Positions 12,455-44,997 of a DNA stretch of 64,000 nt are shown here, one piece after another (position 1 is the stretch's first letter; each line of letters opens with the position of its first letter). The notes beneath the pieces were generated by a model that made no database searches, was not told the origin of the DNA, and saw only the letters and a program-made list of their open reading frames with translations. A program made the position numbers and the translations under genes. The DNA lies in the NCBI GenBank assembly GCA_054600435.1, contig BAAIJX010000016.1, positions 124,001 to 188,000 of the forward strand, written 5' to 3'. Source of the DNA: Neophaeotheca triangularis. Lineage: Eukaryota.

Positions 12455-13214
12455 ATCGTCATGGAAGGGGGATCGAACGGCACGCAGACGCGCGAAAGGC
12501 CGAGTGTTGTCGAGACTTGCAGACAGAGACGAGAGCCTGGGCATTTCGCAATCATCTTTTTGCTTTTGCAAAGAGGGGAGCAGCGCCTTGGAAATTATGA
12601 AGTATTTCCTAGCCACAATAGTTTCCATTTTCAATTGTTGGCTTCACTATCTACCACTGCGAATTCACCCACCACCGAGTCGCCGCCCACACCCCCGAGC
12701 GAATGCAGGCTTTTGCAAAAACACGAGCAAAAGCAATTCGCCATGGAAAAAGGAAAAACGGTCAAAAACGCCCTCGACCGCAGTCTTGCTGTCATTTCTT
12801 TCCCGTTTTGGCATGAAGAAACAAGAACAGGACTCTTCATCTGCAAGTCTCGGCCCCGTTCCATGGCCGCATGCTGGGCACCGAGAGCTGCGCGTGAATC
12901 CCTTAGCGCCCGAAAAACGCCTTGGCCGCGGTATGGGTATCTCTTTCGCTACCGTTGTGTCGTGAAGAGGCAGCAACTCTTTCGCTGCGAGCCCTGACCT
13001 CTTTACGTAGCCACATTCCTAGCGCAAAGAGAACCCCCCAGAAACCCCAGAAACGCCCTTTATCCGATGCTGGTATCTCTCATTTCAGCGCTGCGCACGT
13101 AAAAAGACCTAAAAAACGCCATCGCGACAATCGTATACCTCTCCCCCTCGTAACAAGCTCTTCCTCACCGACCCACCACCACCACACCCACCTCCATCTC
13201 CACAAACTCTCACC

Positions 13215-16200
13215 TCACCACTGCCCCGCAGCCGCCGAATCAACCATATCCCCTCCAGTCCCAGCCCCCCAAGCCATCTTAGTAGCCCGATGGAAAACAG
13301 CCACACTCAAGACATGGCCAAACTTCTCCCCAATGCGCTCAAAAGTCCCACTTCTTACAAAACCCGGGCCAAACGGACTCTGCAACCAATTCGGCAGCCA
13401 AAATCGCTCAGGCCTGTCCGCCTCGTAAGGCACGCTGAAGAACAAGTTCTTGACATTTTGCTTGTAGTCGAGTTTGGCAAAAGTGGCGGCGCCCTGAAAC
13501 TCGACATCGGCGCGTTCCGTGTAGCCTTCGTCGAGAGTTGCGAGGAGTTTGTCGAGGAGGCATTTGCCGATGCCTTTGCGGACGTGGGCGCGGGCGGTCC
13601 AGATTTCGAGTTTGACGGCTGAGTCGTAGATGTCGTTGGCGGCGCCGTAGGGGGTTGCGAAGGCGAAGCCAATGACGGGGTCGGGCAGGGTGATTTCGGC
13701 ATAGCGTCCTGGGCGGCCATTGAAAGTGCGGGGAGGTTGGGTGGCGGTCTCGCAGGCGACAAGGAAGGGGAGGTTGGAGGCGCGGATGCGGCTGAAGCGG
13801 GCGTTCATGTCCTCGACTTCGATTTCTTCTGTCTCGGGCGCGGCGGTGTTGTACTTGATGTGGAGGTTGTAGAGTTTTAGAATTTGCGGCATGTCATCGC
13901 GGATCGCTGTGCGGATGCACATGTTCAAAGATGGCTTTGTTTGCACTGGGCGAAGAGAGTCAGAGTCGCGTTGAATTTTTGCTGCAGTTCGCGCAATCTC
14001 TTTCTGTTTGGCTTTGCGCTCGGCCGCCGCTTGTATCTTTGCCTGCTCTTGTCTCTTACGGTGGGCAGCGGCGTGGAGGGAGCCTTGATCGCTCTCACGG
14101 GCTGCTTTTTGTGCGTGAGTCTCGTTATCCGGGTCAATTCCCTTCTCCTCGGGCTCCTCGATCGTCTTCAGCCACGGCTTATTGATTCCGTAAGGGTATT
14201 CTTTGTCGACACCATTTTCGAATCGCCAGCGCTGCCACCATGGTATGGCGCCCTTTAGGTCTTCGTCGAACGGTTCAGGCTCCTTCGTCTCGATGTACTC
14301 GGCCCAGAAATCGTCGTACTGTAGATCGCCAAACAGCCAGGGACGCCACCAAAGCGGCGCAATCTCTCCACTCAAAACACTTTCCTCAGCATCCCTTATT
14401 GGCTGCTCAAGTTCCAACCCCTCCAGGACATCGTATACTTCATCAAGCCAATGATCAATTCTTTCCTTTGACTGATCGTTGCGGAACGCCGGGCGCATGT
14501 CCCAGTCAAGTGGCGGTGGGTTCCAGTTTCCCGTCCAGTCGGCCAGAGGCTGATCCGTCTCCCACGGTGGGAGTTTTTTGACCCGCTTTCCCCAGCCGCG
14601 AGTGGACGAAGTGGCCTCGGAGACCTCATCGTTCCAATCAATAGTTGGCGCACGAGGAACTGGCTTGATAGTAGAGGGTTTGACCCAGCGGGACTCCTTG
14701 GATCGGATAGGAAGTTCGGGTTGACGCTTCTTGCCTTTGCTCTTGCCTTTGCCTTTGCCATTGCATTTGGGCGGCAGTGGGTCTGGATCTGAAATGGCGT
14801 CTTCCTCCTTTCTGGTAGTCGAATAAGGTACGGCCGGTATGGGGTCCTCTTGGGCGGGCCACGCTTGGATGTTTTCCCCTTCGACCTGCGCGGCCATCTC
14901 GCTGGACCACATGTGAGCGAGGGATTCCCCTTGGGTGCGCATTATGCACGTACCTCTCAGCAGGGTTATGGACAGCGACAGGGCTACTTCTGCCGCCCTT
15001 CTTCGTGCGGAGGTGGGGTGGAACGTAGCTGCCGTCGGTGTCAATGGTATTCACTCGACGGCTGGCCTTTGGTGCGGGCTCAATTGCATGTCGATAGGCA
15101 CGCTGGTAATCCCAAGGTCGACGATCGAAATACGGGCGATACACATACCTGATTTGGGAGGGCACGGCCTCAGGAACATCTTGCGGCACCACGCTAGTGA
15201 CCACGCTGTTTGGCGGCTGTACTGAGTAGCTGCCTTGAGTGTAAGCGCGTTGCTCGTGGCGGTATGGCAGCACATTGTCATTGTGTTTGTTGCCAAAGCC
15301 ACTGTTTTGAGGCATTTGATGGTGTGCTGAAGGTATCGACTGATGGCCTCCGGCGTAGACATACCTCGGTTCTGCAGTAGTAGTTGTAGGAGGAGCTTCC
15401 GGGATAGCAGCCTGTTGGGCAGTCTTGACGGTTTGATGATGGGGCGGAATGTGTCTACCCGATCTGTGAATAAACTGTTCCTGCCAGGAGCCAGGCTTAA
15501 ACTCTTTCGCGAAAGGGTTGCAGTGGGCGCCGATCGGTCGTGAGATCGTAGCCAAGGGGCCAGGAAGTGCAACGTACCTAGGCTTGGAAGCGTCCTTTGC
15601 CTCCTCCATGCTCTCGGTTTTCTTGGGAGCCCTTGGCATCCGCTCTGCTGCCTGTTGTGATGGTACAGAGCTAGCCGTAGCAGTAGCTTGCGTCTTCTTC
15701 GCACGGAGGTGCGGCGGAACGTAACTGGCCATGGCGTAAGTATAATCGCCACGACAAGCTATCGGCTTGTAGCAATCCCAGCAAGAAGGCTTTTGCCCTT
15801 TGCGGAACGATGGATCGAAGAGAGCTACGAAGTCGTTCCAGCCTGCTTGGTTTTCAGGGACATACCTCTTCTTCGGGGTGGTGCCGCTATCAGATGCTTC
15901 AGGGGCTGGAGCTGTGATGGAGGCGCCGTGTTCGGAGCTGCCGGTGGCGTTGTCGATGTCAGGGTCAGGGACAGGCGGGCGTGCCTTTCCGTTGAGAGCA
16001 CTCGCACCCTCGGTCGAGGTATTTTTGTCGAGAGTGGTAGTCGTGTCTGCATCATGAACACCGTTAGCCGTTAAGTCCATCGCATCCCGCCGCTCACTCT
16101 ACGACGCGCAATATGCGCTCCGCAGCCCACAAATCGCGTGGTAGGTTTTGAATAGGGCGTTAGTGTAGAATTCACTTACTCTTGCTGATGGCGCGCGCAC

Positions 16201-16411
16201 TGGCAGGTGGAGCGTTCCCCTGCTTTAGACCGTCACCGGCGCTGGGAAGCATGGCAGAACGGGTGTTGCTGGTCGTCGGCTGGTGCGCAGTCGAGTCGTT
16301 GTGGGTAGGTGCTGGTGGTTCAGGAGCAGCAGATGGAGTCGGTAGAGGGTCTACCCATTTGAAGCGCGACTGCTTCTTGGGGGCAGGCTTTTTGGTGTTG
16401 TTGTTGGACAT
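13215..16411 (-). CDS. GNAT N-acetyltransferase-domain protein with a long disordered N-terminus; proposed exons 16411-16180, 16046-15866, 15724-15578, 15454-15365, 15229-15149, 15028-14954 and 14901-13215
   Basis: C-terminal GNAT domain (IRTAIRDDMPQILKLYN...VIGFAFA...HVRKGIGKCLLDKLL...FVRSGTFERIGEKFG). Intron 14902-14953 (GTACGT..GCTCAC..CAG) joins the 480-aa and 609-aa ORFs. Intron 16047-16179 (GTAAGT..GCTAAC..CAG) joins the first exon in frame. Confidence 0.82.
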
Positions 16412-16647
16412 GGTGTAAGAGTGAAGGCGACGGGGTAGGTATAGGTGTAGGTCAAGTTGCGCGGCGCGCAAGCAACGGTGTGGTGAATTTGGGGTTTTTC
16501 TGAGTCGCAACATTGGTTAGAAAGGGGAAAGTGGCCTGCGATTTGAAGGGAGAGGCATACCTGAGGCAGTTCAAGAAGAGTGAAGGCGTTCTTATGTTGA
16601 TGAAAGACAGTAAGATGCTGTTCGTTCATCCAAGAGAGAAGCAGAGG

Positions 16648-16877: not shown

Positions 16878-17764
16878 ATGTTGTCGATATTACGAAAAGC
16901 GCGTCTTAAGGACAAGGAAATGCGCATCTTGATGCTGTACGTGGCATGCGCTTGAGCAAGTACTTACTCTTTGACTTACAGCTGATTGCCTTCCAGTGGC
17001 CTGGACAATGCCGGCAAGACGACGATTGTGAAGAAGATAATGAACGAAGATGTGAACACAGTCAGTCCGACTCTCGGGTTCATCATCAAGACGATCGATT
17101 ACGATGGGTAAGAGCAATGCAAAATCAGCGCCGGGAAACAGAATTGACAGTTTGAGAAGATACAAACTCAACATCTGTAGGTCTGCCCTGCCGACTGTGG
17201 ACCTCAACGACCGCTGACAGTCTCCATCAGGGGATGTGGGAGGACAAAAGACACTCCGCACATACTGGAAGAATTACTTTGAGAAGACGGATACCCTCAT
17301 CTGGGTTGTCGATGCGACGGATAGGGAGCGCCTAGAAGACTGCAGACAGGAGCTGGACGGCCTCCTGCTGCAAGAGGTGGGGGCCATGAACGACATCAAA
17401 GAGGATAGGAGGCCGACTGCTGACCTATCGTACCAGCGTCTGATGGGTGCCAGCTTGCTGGTGTTCAAAAACAAAAGCGATGTCTCGGGCTCAATGAGCG
17501 AGCAGGAGATTCGTGAGGTGCGCTTGCTCCTCGTCTTCCCTCACCACTGAACACCTCGAGCTGGGCAGCCAGTCCGGCCCGGTTTAGTCATCTCGTTCGT
17601 GGTTTTGCTAACCCAAGCCCGAGCATTTGCAGGGATTACGGCTCGACGAGATCAAGACGCACAAGTGGAAGATTCTGCCGTGTTCTGCCATGACGGGCGA
17701 GAAGCTGCAGGAGGGTTTGCAATGGGTCGTTCAAGATGCAAAGGACCGTTTGTTTCTATACTGA
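16878..17764 (+). CDS. ARL2: ADP-ribosylation factor-like GTPase Arl2 (Cin4/Alp41); 6 exons: 16878-16936, 16997-17107, 17160-17176, 17231-17376, 17437-17517 and 17633-17764
   Basis: Spliced translation [33 protein letters not shown]...[21 protein letters not shown]...NKSD...[27 protein letters not shown], with five canonical GT-AG introns. Confidence 0.95.
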
Positions 17765-39917: not shown

Positions 39918-42833
39918 TCACCCATCTCGAGAAGACTCCGACAACTGCGTCGGGAACGAACTGCCGCCTTTCGTCGTGATCAGCACCTCCGGATCCAGGA
40001 TGCCCTCTTCCGCCAACAATCCCGTGTCGACTACAAACTGCCAAAAGCTCCTCTGCCCAGACATCCCCAGCATCCCCGCCCTCCCTACCAACTTCCCTCC
40101 ATTCTCGCTCCGCACGTCGTCCACGATCCCCCGCAGTCTCGCCCAATCGTTGCGCTCCGCCAGAGCGCGCGCCACATGCTCCAGCGCCCGCCAGGAAATT
40201 CGCTTCCCCTCACGCGACATCCTTTGCAAGAACATGAGCATGGGCCCCGTTCCCACGGCCGCGTGGTGCGTGGCGTAGTTCTCGACCATGCGGTCGTAGA
40301 AGACGACATCTAGGGGCACGGAAAAGCCGGTGCCGGTGTTCTGCGTCTGGTTCCAGAGATTCTCGACCGCCTCGAAATCCGGCGGGTCGCGGGCGAAGTA
40401 CGAGGTCATGAGAATGGTGTAGACGTGGGGGCTCGGCTGGATGCCCTTTTGCAGCATGTGGCTGAGTACGCTCTGCGCGGCTTGTGAGTTGGAATACAGT
40501 TTGAGCAGGCGGTCGATGATGAGGGCGTAGGATTTCTGGTTGGTGGTGACGCCCGTGCCGTCTTCGATTGAGGTTAGCAGGGCGGTGATTTTGGTTTCTT
40601 GTTCGGCGTGCGAGAGGTTGTCGAGGAAGCCGGATTCAAAGAGCGCGGTTACGAGAACTGTGGAGGTTGTGCCGTCGGGTTGGACGCCTTTGGTTTGCAT
40701 GCGGGAAAGCAGGGCGAGGGCTTCGTCGACGCGCGCGTGCCGCATGCTGACATTGAGGAGGGCATTGTAGGTGGTGAGGTCGGGCTCGATGCCGAAAGCG
40801 CGGCCCCATTTCAGAACGCTGGGGATGTCTCCGTCTGATTTTGCTGCTAGAGCGGTCACGGCGGCATTGAAAGATGTTACGTTTGGCTTTGCCACGCCGT
40901 TTACCTCCCCCGTGTACTGGGACCATTCAATAGGGGATGCGGAAGCCTTTGATGAAGCTCGTCGTTTGCCAGAGCTGGGAGTGTGGTCTTTCCCGTGCTG
41001 CTTGACCACAGCGTCTATCCATTCGTCGCCCATCTCTTGCAGTGCCTGGCGACCCTTGTGTGTGAGGCCTGCCCTGAAAAGTCCGTAAATCCGTGTTGTC
41101 CATGCATGGTTGTCCGGTTGCAAGCCATTAGAGCGCATACGGCCCCACAAGCCCTCCATGGCGTTGACGTCCTTACCATACTGAGTGCCGCGCATCATGA
41201 CTACATACGTATGGACTCTGGGCTGGAGGCCAGCTTTTGTCATACTGTTCCACACCTCTATGGCAATTCCGGGTTGGCGCATCGCAAGGAAAGCCAGCAT
41301 GAGGTGTTCGTACATGTAAATTGGGAGAGGGCTCGAATATGATTGCACTTCTTTCCAGACTTGTTCGATGCGAGATAAATCCTGCTTTTCCATTCCCCTC
41401 CCTAGACGTTTGATTCGAAATATAACCCAATGATTGGTTCCACTGTATACCCCAGCGGACGCATTGTCACCCTCAATCTCTGTACGGATGTCAGCCAGGC
41501 TGTCTGAATTCATGGCCAAGTCGGTAGAGCCATCTTCGTTGGCATTTTCCTCGGATTGGTGCCGGCGCGGCCTTGTAGGTTTGTCTTCCTGTCGAAGAGA
41601 AGCTACTTCTTCGGCAATTGGCATCTTGATGCCATACTTATCTATAGCAGCCTGATAAAAGACCTGGATTCTCTCGTTGACTTTGAGAATCATGGTCTTG
41701 AAAAAGTGAGGGGGTGCAAGCGTGGAGGTGGATGCTTCCATGACCGACTGTAAAAGGTCTATGAAAGGCGCATGTTGGGGAAACACAGTGCGTGTGTCCC
41801 TCGACAGATCGGGAGACCTTGGTCCGGTTTGACTCAGGCTGGCAAGCGTGAGGATAGCGGCAGCCGTGAAATCGCTGTTCTCTCGCACTGAAACGTTTGT
41901 GGATCCCGTGGGAGGAGTCAGCCAGCTTATGGCGTGCTCAAAGAGTCGGCTCGGGTTGTGTGTTGAAGATTCTTTTATCACCACGTCGGCTGAGGGCAAG
42001 AAGGACCAGTCAAACGCGGCATCATCGTCCATGACTTGGAGCGGTGCGTTGGGTAGACAGTGCATCTTCACACAGGTGTGCCATATTCTCAACGTTTCCC
42101 CAATCAGTCTATCGTGTGCTCCCGGCTTCAAGACACCGTTCACTGGGTGCACATAAGCCCACTGTGCGAGCCTCAACACAACCCAAGACATGGTGTTGCC
42201 ATTCATCAAGTCCAGGCGCCGCATATACTCCACAATTTGCGCAGGGGTCTCCAAGTCGAGTATCACATCTTGATGTATTATCGGCTCTTGCGGTTTGGTT
42301 TCGACATTTTCAGTCTCGAAATGCTGGTAGGCCCACCGCCATAACAATTTGTGCAGTATCTTGCAGGTGGCTTGCGTTCCTGCAGTACTAGGGAGAATCG
42401 TCTGTCGCTCAGCTGGTGGGAGTCGTTCGAAATATTGCAATCCAGAGAGAAGTGCGGATCCTTCTTTCTCGTTGGCTGCGGCTTTCAGTCGTTTTAGCGT
42501 ACTAGTATCGCGCTGTTGCCGCGTCTCATCTTCCACGAATATGCTGGATGGCCGCTCCAGCGTAGGTGTCGGCTGTGGTGCAGGCTTGCGGGGGCCATCT
42601 CTTCTTCGGTCTGTCTCGCGGACCGAGCCAAGTAATTCTTCTGGCTTCAGGGGCTGACGTGAATATCTTCCTTCCCTGCCAAATCTTCGCTCCCCTTGAG
42701 AGGACGCTTCGTTGACCTGGGATCGAGGACTGGCATACGATATTCTTTGTATTTGAGACACTCGGGTTACGGATGAAACGTGCGGTCTCTTCAAGCTCTC
42801 TCTGCAAGCCCGGCAAATGTACGCTGGAGCCAT
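39918..42833 (-). CDS. Mitochondrial pentatricopeptide repeat (PPR) protein
   Basis: 971-aa ORF with a basic presequence (MAPAYICRACRES...) and PPR repeats (GLQPRVHTYVVMM, GLQPDNHAWTT, PNVTSFNAAV, GIEPDLTTYNALL, GIQPSPHVYTILMTSY). Confidence 0.9.
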   Translation of the reverse strand: MAPAYICRACRESLKRPHVSSVTRVSQIQRISYASPRSQVNEASSQGERRFGREGRYSRQPLKPEELLGSVRETDRRRDGPRKPAPQPTPTLERPSSIFVEDETRQQRDTSTLKRLKAAANEKEGSALLSGLQYFERLPPAERQTILPSTAGTQATCKILHKLLWRWAYQHFETENVETKPQEPIIHQDVILDLETPAQIVEYMRRLDLMNGNTMSWVVLRLAQWAYVHPVNGVLKPGAHDRLIGETLRIWHTCVKMHCLPNAPLQVMDDDAAFDWSFLPSADVVIKESSTHNPSRLFEHAISWLTPPTGSTNVSVRENSDFTAAAILTLASLSQTGPRSPDLSRDTRTVFPQHAPFIDLLQSVMEASTSTLAPPHFFKTMILKVNERIQVFYQAAIDKYGIKMPIAEEVASLRQEDKPTRPRRHQSEENANEDGSTDLAMNSDSLADIRTEIEGDNASAGVYSGTNHWVIFRIKRLGRGMEKQDLSRIEQVWKEVQSYSSPLPIYMYEHLMLAFLAMRQPGIAIEVWNSMTKAGLQPRVHTYVVMMRGTQYGKDVNAMEGLWGRMRSNGLQPDNHAWTTRIYGLFRAGLTHKGRQALQEMGDEWIDAVVKQHGKDHTPSSGKRRASSKASASPIEWSQYTGEVNGVAKPNVTSFNAAVTALAAKSDGDIPSVLKWGRAFGIEPDLTTYNALLNVSMRHARVDEALALLSRMQTKGVQPDGTTSTVLVTALFESGFLDNLSHAEQETKITALLTSIEDGTGVTTNQKSYALIIDRLLKLYSNSQAAQSVLSHMLQKGIQPSPHVYTILMTSYFARDPPDFEAVENLWNQTQNTGTGFSVPLDVVFYDRMVENYATHHAAVGTGPMLMFLQRMSREGKRISWRALEHVARALAERNDWARLRGIVDDVRSENGGKLVGRAGMLGMSGQRSFWQFVVDTGLLAEEGILDPEVLITTKGGSSFPTQLSESSRDG

Positions 42834-43243: not shown

Positions 43244-44997
43244 ATGACTACGCTCCAGCCCAGGCCGCCATATTCTCCGGCGGAACTGGAGAAGCTCTAT
43301 CCTAGTCAACTCCAGCTACAGCAGGTCCAGATTGTACGTTTGGCGGATCACAGACCATTATGTGTATTTGAACTGACCACATTCACCTAGTTGCTTCGCC
43401 ATGGTCAGCATCGGCGTATGAAGTAATTGATTTTCCGAGACTGACCCATCGTAGGCGAACGAACGCCAGTGTCTGCCCGCTTTCAAAACGTAGGATGCTA
43501 ATTCAATTCGCAATTGATCAAATTACTTTACTAAGTGTTCAAAGACCGGGCTTCCAGCGTGTATGTCCAATCATGCCTTCGTAGACCGATCCTTTTGGGG
43601 CTGACATTGGCTTAGATTGGCCGTATTGCAATGTAGCAAGACGCATGAAATCTGCCGTGATGACCGAAGATGCGGCATTGGATGACCTGACATGGAGGAG
43701 GAAGATCGAGACACTGGGTGCCGGGGATGCTCCAATCCCTGCGAGTGGCCCTGGGGGTGCGGTCGATTCAGTATGCCAGCCAGGCGAGCTCACCGATAAG
43801 GGGAGGGAAACGACTCTCTCCCTGGGTGCCAGAACCCGTGGTCTGTACGTCGATCAGCTTGGCTTCTTACCCGCCACTCTTGACGCAGACACTCTGCTGA
43901 AGCTGCGCCTCCGCTCAACACCGATACCACGAGCTCTAGAGAGTGTTCAGCAAACGTTCATCGGCCTGTACCCGAGCAGCGCTCGTACGCAAAGCCTTGG
44001 GCCTCCAAACATAGTCACACGAGCTTTCTCGGACGAGACCCTGTTTCCCAACGAGGGCGGCTGCAAGCGCTTTGCAGAGCTCGCTAGAGCCTTTGCGGAC
44101 CGCACTGCGCTCAAATGGAACGGCACCGAGGAGCTCGATTATGTCAACAAGAAGATCGGCAAGTACATGCCAAAGGAGAGCCCGACAGTTGCAGTAGACT
44201 CCCACCCTAGGCTGAGTGGAATCATGGACTCGATCAACTCCACTCTAGCGCATGGTTCCAAGACAAAGCTACCGAGCGACTTTTACGACCCGAAAGTCGT
44301 GGCAACTATCGATCGCATCTGCACTGAAGAATGGTTTGTCGGCTACACTGAATCGCTCGAGTACCGTAAGCTAGGCATCGGTGGTCTCGTGGGAGATATC
44401 ACTCAGATCATGGTACAAGCAGCGGCTGGCAAGCACGGTGGACAGGAGCCGGTGAAGCTTGGCATGGCAGGATGTCATGACACGACAATCGCAGCGACTC
44501 TGACGGCCCTCGGTGCTTTTGGCGGGTGTGGTGTCGACGAAAAGTGGGAAAAGTGGCCGCCGTACACCAGCTCTATCGCTTTTGAACTCTTCAAACGCAA
44601 AGGGGCAGACAGCCCTTCCTCCAGCAGCCCCAGTGGAACCGTCTGGCCCAGCCAACAGCGCACTTGGTGGCAGTCTTTCTTCGGCGGTGGCGCATCCGCC
44701 TCTTCTGAAGCGTCAGCCCGCCAACCATTGAAAGACATTTCTCCCGCGGAAAAGGGCAAGCTAGAAGGCTACTACGTGCGATTGCGCTACAACGACCGCC
44801 CGATGAGCATACCCGGTTGCAAGCCCGCTGGCAAGCATCTCGAAGGTGACGAGAGCTTCTGTACGCTCGAGGCTTTCAAGGAGATTGCCGACTCTTTTAC
44901 GCCAAAGAGCTGGAGAGATGAATGCAGGCAGAATCTGGGATCGCTAGCTTTTCCAGAAACGAAGGAGTTGCCGAAGGGTGTTGAAGTGAGTGAGTAG
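43244..44997 (+). CDS. Histidine acid phosphatase (branch 2, ACP6/phytase-like); exons 43244-43333, 43391-43403, 43455-43489, 43545-43560 and 43616-44997
   Basis: Spliced N-terminus MTTLQPRPPYSPAELEKLYPSQLQLQQVQI|LLRHG|ERTPVSARFQN|TGLPAYWPYC contains RHGxRxP. Also GELTDKG, LRSTPIPRALES and the catalytic GCHD. Confidence 0.9.

Follow-up and report, generated by a model that had tools for sequence, protein, structure and literature searches.

In the black yeast-like Dothideomycete Neophaeotheca triangularis, a gene for a protein that resembles GNAT acetyltransferases contains four consecutive segments, here named c1 to c4, that bear the signals of spliceosomal introns and at the same time can be translated without interruption. 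The gene lies on the minus strand of a stretch of 64,000 nucleotides (nt) (assembly GCA_054600435.1, contig BAAIJX010000016.1, positions 124,001 to 188,000 of the forward strand), which is referred to as the window throughout and is numbered from its first letter. Each segment is followed by a mini-exon that begins with a YVPPHLR motif or a degenerate version of it. A prediction made from the letters of the window (in the following the original prediction) had proposed a splicing-tuned array in which optional introns set the valency of YVPPH motifs in front of the acetyltransferase and connect it, through a motif known to interact with eIF4E, to translation or RNP-granule machinery.

Gene structure at the locus

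The features of the coding region, derived from joined-exon models, are given below in the direction of transcription. The slash marks the splice boundary.

13215..16411, minus strand: whole coding region, ATG at 16411, stop codon ending at 13215
16047..16179, minus strand: obligatory intron 1, 133 nt, GTAAGT..GCTAAC..CAG, length not a multiple of three; its excision reproduces the public protein
15725..15865, minus strand: candidate optional intron c1, 141 nt, AG/GTATGT..CTTAC-N9-AG/, phase 2, stop-free, encoding YVPENQAGWNDFVALFDPSFRKGQKPSCWDCYKPIACRGDYTYAMA
15578..15724, minus strand: mini-exon b, 147 nt, starting (S)YVPPHLRAKK, with the YVPPHLR codons at 15723-15703
15455..15577, minus strand: candidate optional intron c2, 123 nt, AG/GTACGT..TTCAC-N9-AG/, phase 2, stop-free
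15493..15522, minus strand: PAM2-like motif CNPFAKEFKP, encoded inside c2, matching 5 of the 6 fixed positions of LNxxAxEFxP
15365..15454, minus strand: mini-exon c, 90 nt, starting (R)HIPPHHQT, a degenerate motif
15230..15364, minus strand: candidate optional intron c3, 135 nt, AG/GTATGT..CTTAC-N9-AG/, phase 2, stop-free, with an AAG 4 nt before the CAG
15149..15229, minus strand: mini-exon d, 81 nt, starting (S)YSVQPPNS, a degenerate motif
15029..15148, minus strand: candidate optional intron c4, 120 nt, AG/GTATGT..TTGAC-N9-AG/, phase 2, stop-free
14954..15028, minus strand: mini-exon e, 75 nt, starting (S)YVPPHLRTKK, with the motif codons at 15027-15007
14902..14953, minus strand: obligatory intron 5, 52 nt, AG/GTACGT..CTCAC-N9-AG/, phase 2, CAG acceptor
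13215..14901, minus strand: large C-terminal exon with a middle region that is conserved and rich in Trp, together with a divergent GNAT domain (~13218-13940)

When only introns 1 and 5 are removed, the joined exons encode 1003 amino acids (aa), and this model is identical, letter for letter, to the public record NCBI GAB7361827.1 (P0014 in our protein set), a hypothetical protein of N. triangularis; removal of all six introns would yield a protein of 830 aa. The public model, which is evidently automated, reads through all four candidate introns within a coding exon. A stop-to-stop open reading frame (ORF) of 486 aa (14638-16098) spans c1 to c4, and every donor is read in it as the tripeptide RYV. 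Removal of intron 5, whose donor is GAGAG/GTACGT at 14953, shifts the frame from this ORF into the one at 13215-15050, which is that of the GNAT domain. The ORF map and the joined exons thus bear out the earlier statement that the 52-nt intron is the only one that has to be removed for entry into the GNAT ORF.

The array had been described correctly to the base, including the coordinates, lengths and phases of c1 to c4 and of the mini-exons as well as the junction peptides, which after joining the exons in a script read KKSYVPPHLR, KPRHIPPHH, EPSYSVQPP and QISYVPPHLR. The segments are bordered by GAAGAG/GTATGT..GGCCAG/ (c1), GCCTAG/GTACGT..GGGTAG/ (c2), ACCGAG/GTATGT..AGGCAG/ (c3) and AATCAG/GTATGT..CGGCAG/ (c4). 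All five AG/GTATGT or AG/GTACGT donors that had been claimed were found, i.e., those of c1 to c4 and the one at 14953, and the branch-like motifs CTTAC, TTCAC, CTTAC and TTGAC are present in c1 to c4, respectively. The four mini-exons (147, 90, 81 and 75 nt) are all multiples of three, the frame is preserved whichever donor is joined to whichever downstream acceptor, and none of the junction codons (AGT, AGA and AGC) is a stop. The claims that 16 isoforms (2^4) are available through retention and that any mixture of retention and skipping remains in frame are correct.

Splice signals and open frame of c1 to c4

The strongest evidence that the segments are introns is found at the nucleotide level. 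The 3' ends read CTTAC-GCCATGGCC-AG in c1, TTCAC-AGATCGGGT-AG in c2, CTTAC-ACTCAAGGC-AG in c3, TTGAC-ACCGACGGC-AG in c4 and CTCAC-ATGTGGTCC-AG in the obligatory intron 5. In all five of them YTNAC is followed by nine unconserved bases and AG, with the branch-type A 12 nt before the exon. The codon preceding the branch codon always ends in T, though it encodes T, I, A, I and A, and the branch codon itself is always NAC, though it encodes Y, H, Y, D and H. At the donors, Arg is specified by AGG in four out of four segments, a codon that accounts for 16.5-17% of the Arg codons in long ORFs. If the peptides are taken as given, the probability that synonymous codon choice alone provides all signal bases is 1.1e-9; it is 7.5e-8 if the acceptor AG is left out, a dinucleotide that could be inherited, given that no series of single synonymous steps leads from Ser AGY to TCN. 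YTNAC at the exact offset precedes 0.38% of the 2,129 AG sites in long ORFs (8.6% for any offset). The sequence AGGTAYGT occurs nine times on both strands of the 64-kb window, five of these copies falling within this 913-nt stretch, and it is absent, as are RYV tripeptides, from the sense strand of the 14 other long ORFs (29,568 nt). All five RYV sites lack the PPHLR core of the family motif described below, yet have retained the exact donor bases. As the signal bases are constant where the encoded residues vary, we infer that selection acts on the splice signals and that the segments are most likely spliced at least sometimes. Their layout is that of the neighboring obligatory 52-nt intron, so the spliceosome should recognize c1 to c4.

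A heuristic intron scan of the window, too noisy to provide a local intron profile, also returned two 135-nt look-alikes within long ORFs (41074-41208 on the minus strand and 43845-43979 on the plus strand), which are stop-free, divisible by three and of the form GTAYGT..YAG. They were dismissed as counterparts of c1 to c4, since neither has an AG in front of the GT and both are located in clearly coding sequence, and they look like chance occurrences; one such segment alone would therefore be insignificant. The ORF containing the first look-alike resembles, as judged by eye, a pentatricopeptide-type repeat.

The second line of evidence concerns the reading frame. Frames of 129 nt are free of stops in 2,139 of 16,384 cases (13.1%) in the non-ORF DNA of the window, and the chance that four out of four segments are both stop-free and a multiple of three is about 4e-6 (0.131^4 x (1/3)^4). 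From this state we argue that unspliced mRNAs undergo translation, or that the cell at least tolerates them. The segment peptides are also unusual in composition: Phe, Trp and Tyr make up 15.4% of their 169 residues, 2.4% of the 127 residues of the mini-exons and 0% of exon 2. In 2,000 nucleotide shuffles the aromatic content was 6.8% +/- 1.8% with a maximum of 13.2%, such that the observed value lies above all of them. The G+C content (GC) of c1 to c4 is 0.52-0.56 as opposed to 0.54-0.61 for the mini-exons and 0.61 for exon 2. Codon log-odds amount to 0.05-0.13 bits per codon for c1 to c4, compared to 0.21 for coding and 0.007 for stop-free non-coding sequence. The proposal that the segments are coding by codon bias was dropped, as the codon-usage test is neutral (product of the likelihood ratios 0.32).

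A comparison with strain X2 revealed 51 differences in 3,301 nt (about 1.5% divergence) and no insertion or deletion over 13200-16500. Among the 40 of the 51 differences that were listed, 11 are synonymous and 9 non-synonymous in the C-terminal exon. At window position 15011, X2 has CGC instead of CTC, which exchanges Leu for Arg and converts the fourth motif from YVPPHLR into YVPPHRR; even under one species label, this copy is not invariant. X2 is represented by two alternative contigs at 15069-15238 (part of c4, mini-exon d and the end of c3), with four and six differences and depths of 65 and 55 compared to about 100 in the flanks, which suggests two haplotypes or copies in this strain. Of the further contigs over the locus, X3 is restricted to 13691-13910 and X4 to a low-complexity piece of 34 nt; the four sets of contigs compared with the locus are of DNA or unknown type and contain no joints.

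The protein family and its short motifs

Judged by similarity, the C-terminal exon encodes a divergent GNAT domain of the phosphinothricin acetyltransferase type with putative catalytic activity. Pfam returned Acetyltransf_7 for the window's protein with an E-value of 0.012, which is below the cut-off, and matches in the PDB were the phosphinothricin N-acetyltransferases 9igk_A (E 2.9e-6) and 5t7d_A (E 6.3e-4) as well as 9igl_A (E 3.4e-6). GNAT models were matched at E<=0.01 by 8 of 27 relatives, three of them above Pfam's cut-off. A Pfam search with the array ORF found nothing. A word-indexed search retrieved 13 relatives with a best identity of about 35%, and an exhaustive search retrieved 615 representatives at E<=0.001. 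The relatives are fungal and include proteins from Oleoguttula, Vermiconidia, Hortaea, Zymoseptoria and Pseudocercospora. The closest one, P0015, is a C-terminal fragment of 235 aa with 66% identity, and the best-matching full-length relatives comprise 784-834 aa. A search of the ESM Atlas with the conserved middle region gave no usable match.

In the window's protein, Y-x-P-P-H-L-R is present in two exact copies (15723-15703 and 15027-15007) and two degenerate ones (HIPPHHQ and YSVQPPN). Across the family, the N-terminal short motif is [LVI]PPH[LM]R followed by a basic residue, with 85 instances in 64 of 160 proteins; a looser pattern finds at least one copy in 70 and at least two copies in 20 of the 160. 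Of two distant family members, P0024 contains six tandem PPHLR modules (residues ~150-380) and P0053 four, in both cases as continuous coding repeats with a period of about 40 residues, and these look like an independent expansion of the same motif. Expansion of the PPHLR motif is a recurrent theme of the family, and the two exact and two degenerate copies in the window are one more case. Among the matches listed, as judged by title and abstract, a literature search returned DDX3/Ded1/LAF-1-type proteins or unrelated matters and no description of a PPHLR motif in acetyltransferases.

Exon skipping, the way to change the number of motifs, is rare in fungi. All PPH motifs lie in mini-exons and retention of c1 to c4 consequently leaves their number unchanged, so the proposed tuning of "motif valency" is a weak idea. 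The connection to eIF4E had been drawn from the two mini-exons that start with YVPPHLR, the same pattern as the conserved N-terminal motif of the helicases DDX3X and Ded1. YIPPHLR of DDX3X/Ded1 has been proposed as an eIF4E-binding site and, according to PMC11251518, association with the translation machinery depends on this motif; nuclear magnetic resonance (NMR) experiments described in the same source revealed no direct binding of the DDX3X peptide to eIF4E. The conserved core in the GNAT family is [LVI]PPH[LM]R, from which the Tyr is often absent: of 83 instances in relatives, 25 have Tyr and 22 have Ala two positions before PPH. With Tyr and, given the exchange in X2, Leu not conserved and with the negative NMR result (PMC11251518), the claimed interaction with eIF4E is doubtful. 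A link of the gene to translation or messenger ribonucleoprotein biology is conceivable, and the PAM2-like motif adds to it.

A methionine codon is present close to the first motif: the Met of '..YAMASYVPPHLR' (ATG at 15731-15733, minus strand, inside c1) stands five residues before it. Relatives often have "MA" 3-10 residues upstream of PPHLR, and at least five of them (P0021, P0026, P0043, P0044 and P0093) start exactly 10 residues before PPHLR, so that the motif may be N-terminal ancestrally. As far as can be judged from the sequence, the ATG at 15731-15733 could be an old or alternative start. The "AMA" before the first motif was rejected as evidence of homology, since the distance between M-A and the motif is variable in relatives and the AMA of the window stands two residues off its position in P0003 and P0011.

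The PAM2-like motif CNPFAKEFKP within c2 has a core, NP-AKEF-P, that we take to resemble the motifs of Paip2 and ataxin-2. PAM2 motifs, which bind to the MLLE domain of poly(A)-binding protein, have the consensus LNxxAxEFxP (PMC7356810); the peptide in c2 agrees with it in N, A, E, F and P and differs in that the anchoring Leu is replaced by Cys, so that it is to be regarded as a candidate from sequence alone. Within the 127,996 residues of the six-frame translation of the window and the 108,845 residues of the 160 family proteins, the pattern N..A.EF.P matches only here.

Two further features were noted outside the coding region. The 5' untranslated region of the same gene likely contains a 61-nt intron (16500-16560, minus strand, CAG/GTATGC..CTAAC..CAG) about 90 nt upstream of the ATG. 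An ORF fragment at 17218-17550 on the plus strand reads like a small GTPase of the ARF/ARL type and is an ordinary neighbor.

Interpretation, origin and significance

From the observed anatomy, the conservation of the signals at the nucleotide level, the preservation of the frame and the motif matches, we consider it probable (roughly 0.55) that c1 to c4 are real spliceosomal introns that have also been kept translatable, i.e., a row of optional, exitron-like introns located in the disordered N-terminal half of the protein. This includes that the segments are spliced, that splicing is partial and that the retained peptides are relevant, all of which we infer from the DNA. Of the splicing-tuned array as originally proposed, the complete splice signals, the translatability and the module layout stand; motif valency is a weak point and the link to eIF4E is doubtful.

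Several known systems are close to such an arrangement. Exitrons, as described for Arabidopsis and human (Marquez et al. 2015, PMC4484396), are defined by junction reads from RNA sequencing, are of an intermediate nature and have a lower GC than the adjacent exons. Like them, c1 to c4 lie in an annotated coding exon, have canonical splice sites, are stop-free and a multiple of three and have a GC below that of the neighboring exons; they are also situated in a disordered region, where splicing would give an internally deleted protein. In contrast to exitrons, which are known from junction reads and have weak donors, c1 to c4 are known from DNA sequence, have strong donors and occur as four in series in one fungal gene, with the same phase, the same branch-to-acceptor spacing and a PPH-type motif after each. 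The intron of yeast PTC7 likewise is a fungal, in-frame, stop-free intron with consensus splice sites; it is retained and translated, and both mRNAs give functional proteins (Juneau et al. 2009, in PMC7491326). PTC7 has a single intron, coding for a transmembrane helix, and both of its isoforms were shown experimentally, whereas the N. triangularis gene has four, predicted from sequence and encoding disordered, aromatic-rich peptides.

Two simpler explanations of the array have to be weighed. The first holds that it is plain coding sequence, never spliced, in which RYV and [SR][YH][VI]PP repeats merely resemble splice sites, perhaps as a result of duplication of an [SR]YVPPHLR unit. The ORF is indeed open throughout and translated across c1 to c4 in the public model, and Tyr-Val encoded as TAY GTN turns into a donor hexamer after any codon with G in the third position; no peptide rationale, however, accounts for AGG in four of four cases or for NNT-NAC fixed 9 nt from AG despite varying amino acids, and intron 5 has the identical spacing. 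Inheritance could explain the acceptor AG, but even without it codon choice alone reaches only 7.5e-8. R-Y-V-PPH is found in a relative (GRYVPPHMR in P0111) and PPHLR modules have expanded as pure coding repeats in P0024 (six) and P0053 (four); the RYV copies of the window, in contrast, have lost the PPHLR core and kept the exact donor bases, and neither AG/GTAYGT nor RYV occurs in 29.6 kb of other long ORFs. The PAM2-like motif and the non-random aromatic content inside the segments speak for plain coding sequence. One would expect the spliceosome to use donor, branch and acceptor signals that are intact, and all in all we regard the absence of any splicing as rather unlikely. A further step down in probability, in our judgment, and thus improbable, is that c1 to c4 are ordinary constitutive introns, that the true protein has 830 aa and that the public annotation is wrong, the stop-free state in multiples of three being a short-lived relic of intronization or of tandem duplication of the Rogers type. 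The complete sets of signals, lengths of 120-141 nt like that of the 133-nt intron 1, a protein of 830 aa that fits full-length relatives (784-834 aa) better than one of 1003 aa, and codon usage no better than that of stop-free non-coding DNA all agree with constitutive splicing, as does the donor AG/GTACGT, which resembles the exon starts AG/TTACGT and AG/CTACGT as predicted by the tandem-duplication model (PMC3265369). Without constraint, however, four of four segments would combine divisibility by three with freedom from stops at a probability of about 4e-6, and selection is reported to act in general against stop-free introns with a length divisible by three (Jaillon 2008, quoted in PMC4484396). 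Beyond their signals, the segments have no similarity to each other or to the flanking exons and are therefore not young duplicates, yet none has gained a stop or a frame-shifting insertion or deletion, and the structure is already common to the approximately 1.5% diverged strain X2. An aromatic content above all 2,000 shuffles and an intact PAM2-like motif also count against constitutive introns.

A very remote third explanation is that c1 to c4 are degenerated introner-like elements, mobile introns of Dothideomycetes that are longer than the regular fungal introns of 50-55 nt. Van der Burgt and colleagues are said to have described, in 2012, unusually stable predicted RNA structures as a feature of such elements. 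The segments show no consistent excess in RNA stability (z = -2.22, +1.02, -0.99 and -0.85 for c1 to c4). The host belongs to an order in which introner-like elements occur, and lengths of 120-141 nt would fit, regular fungal introns being given as 50-55 bp (PMC4457414). No second copy is present in the 64-kb window, c1 to c4 are not similar to each other, and insertion of mobile elements does not account for four of four segments being stop-free and a multiple of three.

The interpretation of c1 to c4 as exitron-like introns is favored by the public annotation in so far as it places them inside a coding exon; the same automated model leaves them unspliced, and this is one of several points that weigh against it. 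The codon-usage likelihood ratios for coding versus stop-free non-coding sequence are 1.1, 0.7, 1.2 and 0.3 (product 0.32), and the splice signals (TAY at the donors and TAC at the branch sites) by themselves account for about 6 of the 26 aromatic residues. The changes in X2 that fall into c1 to c4 comprise 4 synonymous and 5 non-synonymous ones among the 40 of 51 differences listed, which are too few sites to carry weight. No relative of the 486-aa ORF was found among proteins of 267-851 aa, residues 130-445 of P0014 had no match in proteins of 30-550 aa, and no locus related to the array region turned up in JGI metagenome contigs. The PAM2-like motif was noticed after the fact, has Cys in place of the consensus Leu and was found by pattern search in none of the other 159 family proteins.

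If c1 to c4 are optional introns, the fully spliced mRNA would encode the protein of 830 aa, in which a polar linker rich in Ser, Thr, Pro, Ala and Gln and containing four PPH-type motifs precedes the enzyme. Retention of c1, c2, c3 and c4 would insert 47, 41, 45 and 40 aromatic-rich residues, respectively, between the motifs, and retention of c2 would add the candidate PAM2-type motif for docking to poly(A)-binding protein. Spacing, the content of aromatic "stickers" and the PAM2-like site, and not YVPPH "valency", would then be the features that are tuned. As all segments are in phase 2, a multiple of three and stop-free, spliced, unspliced and mixed mRNAs alike would encode the full-length enzyme and escape nonsense surveillance, in all 16 combinations of retention and in any combination of exon skipping.

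The array might have originated when a change from Ser (AGC) to Arg (AGG) in a copy of the [S]YV motif created a donor; the donor AG/GTACGT differs from the exon starts AG/TTACGT and AG/CTACGT by one base. Such an origin is reminiscent of the Rogers model, in which introns are born by tandem duplication of a coding segment that contains AGGT (Hellsten et al. 2011, PMC3265369). The introns are located at AG/GT in coding sequence, and AG/GTACGT resembles the exon start AG/(T or C)TACGT in two of the four modules. In contrast to the model, the intron bodies have no remaining similarity to the flanking exons, so that the resemblance is only a hint of a duplication origin. Duplication of exon-intron modules, as put forward in the original prediction, is plausible and the module layout is real, but similarity is limited to a 34-nt motif-coding stretch (85% identical), outside which the modules have no detectable DNA similarity; because this stretch is all they share, a duplication origin cannot be demonstrated. 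It is a tentative idea that the gene has a splicing-programmed disordered N-terminus, in which four exitrons would give at least 16 isoforms and would switch aromatic stickers and a PAM2-type site, the array having been born from copies of [SR]YVPPHLR that turned into donors.

For annotation, the gene poses a problem: gene finders will settle on one of two lengths, 1003 or 830 aa, and possibly neither is correct on its own. In fungi, functional alternative splicing is considered rare, and most fungal intron retention is regarded as noise that is cleared by nonsense-mediated decay. Among the literature matches listed, as judged by title or abstract, no description of a fungal exitron array was found; exitrons are known from plants and human and single retained and translated introns from yeast. 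The gene is a compact natural test case for the questions whether fungi use exitron-type splicing to diversify disordered regions, whether short linear motifs such as the PAM2-like site can be switched by intron retention and whether introns can be born from coding repeats at AGGT sites. If the proposed origin is true, the array would exemplify, in nature and in several copies, the birth of introns from coding sequence at such sites.

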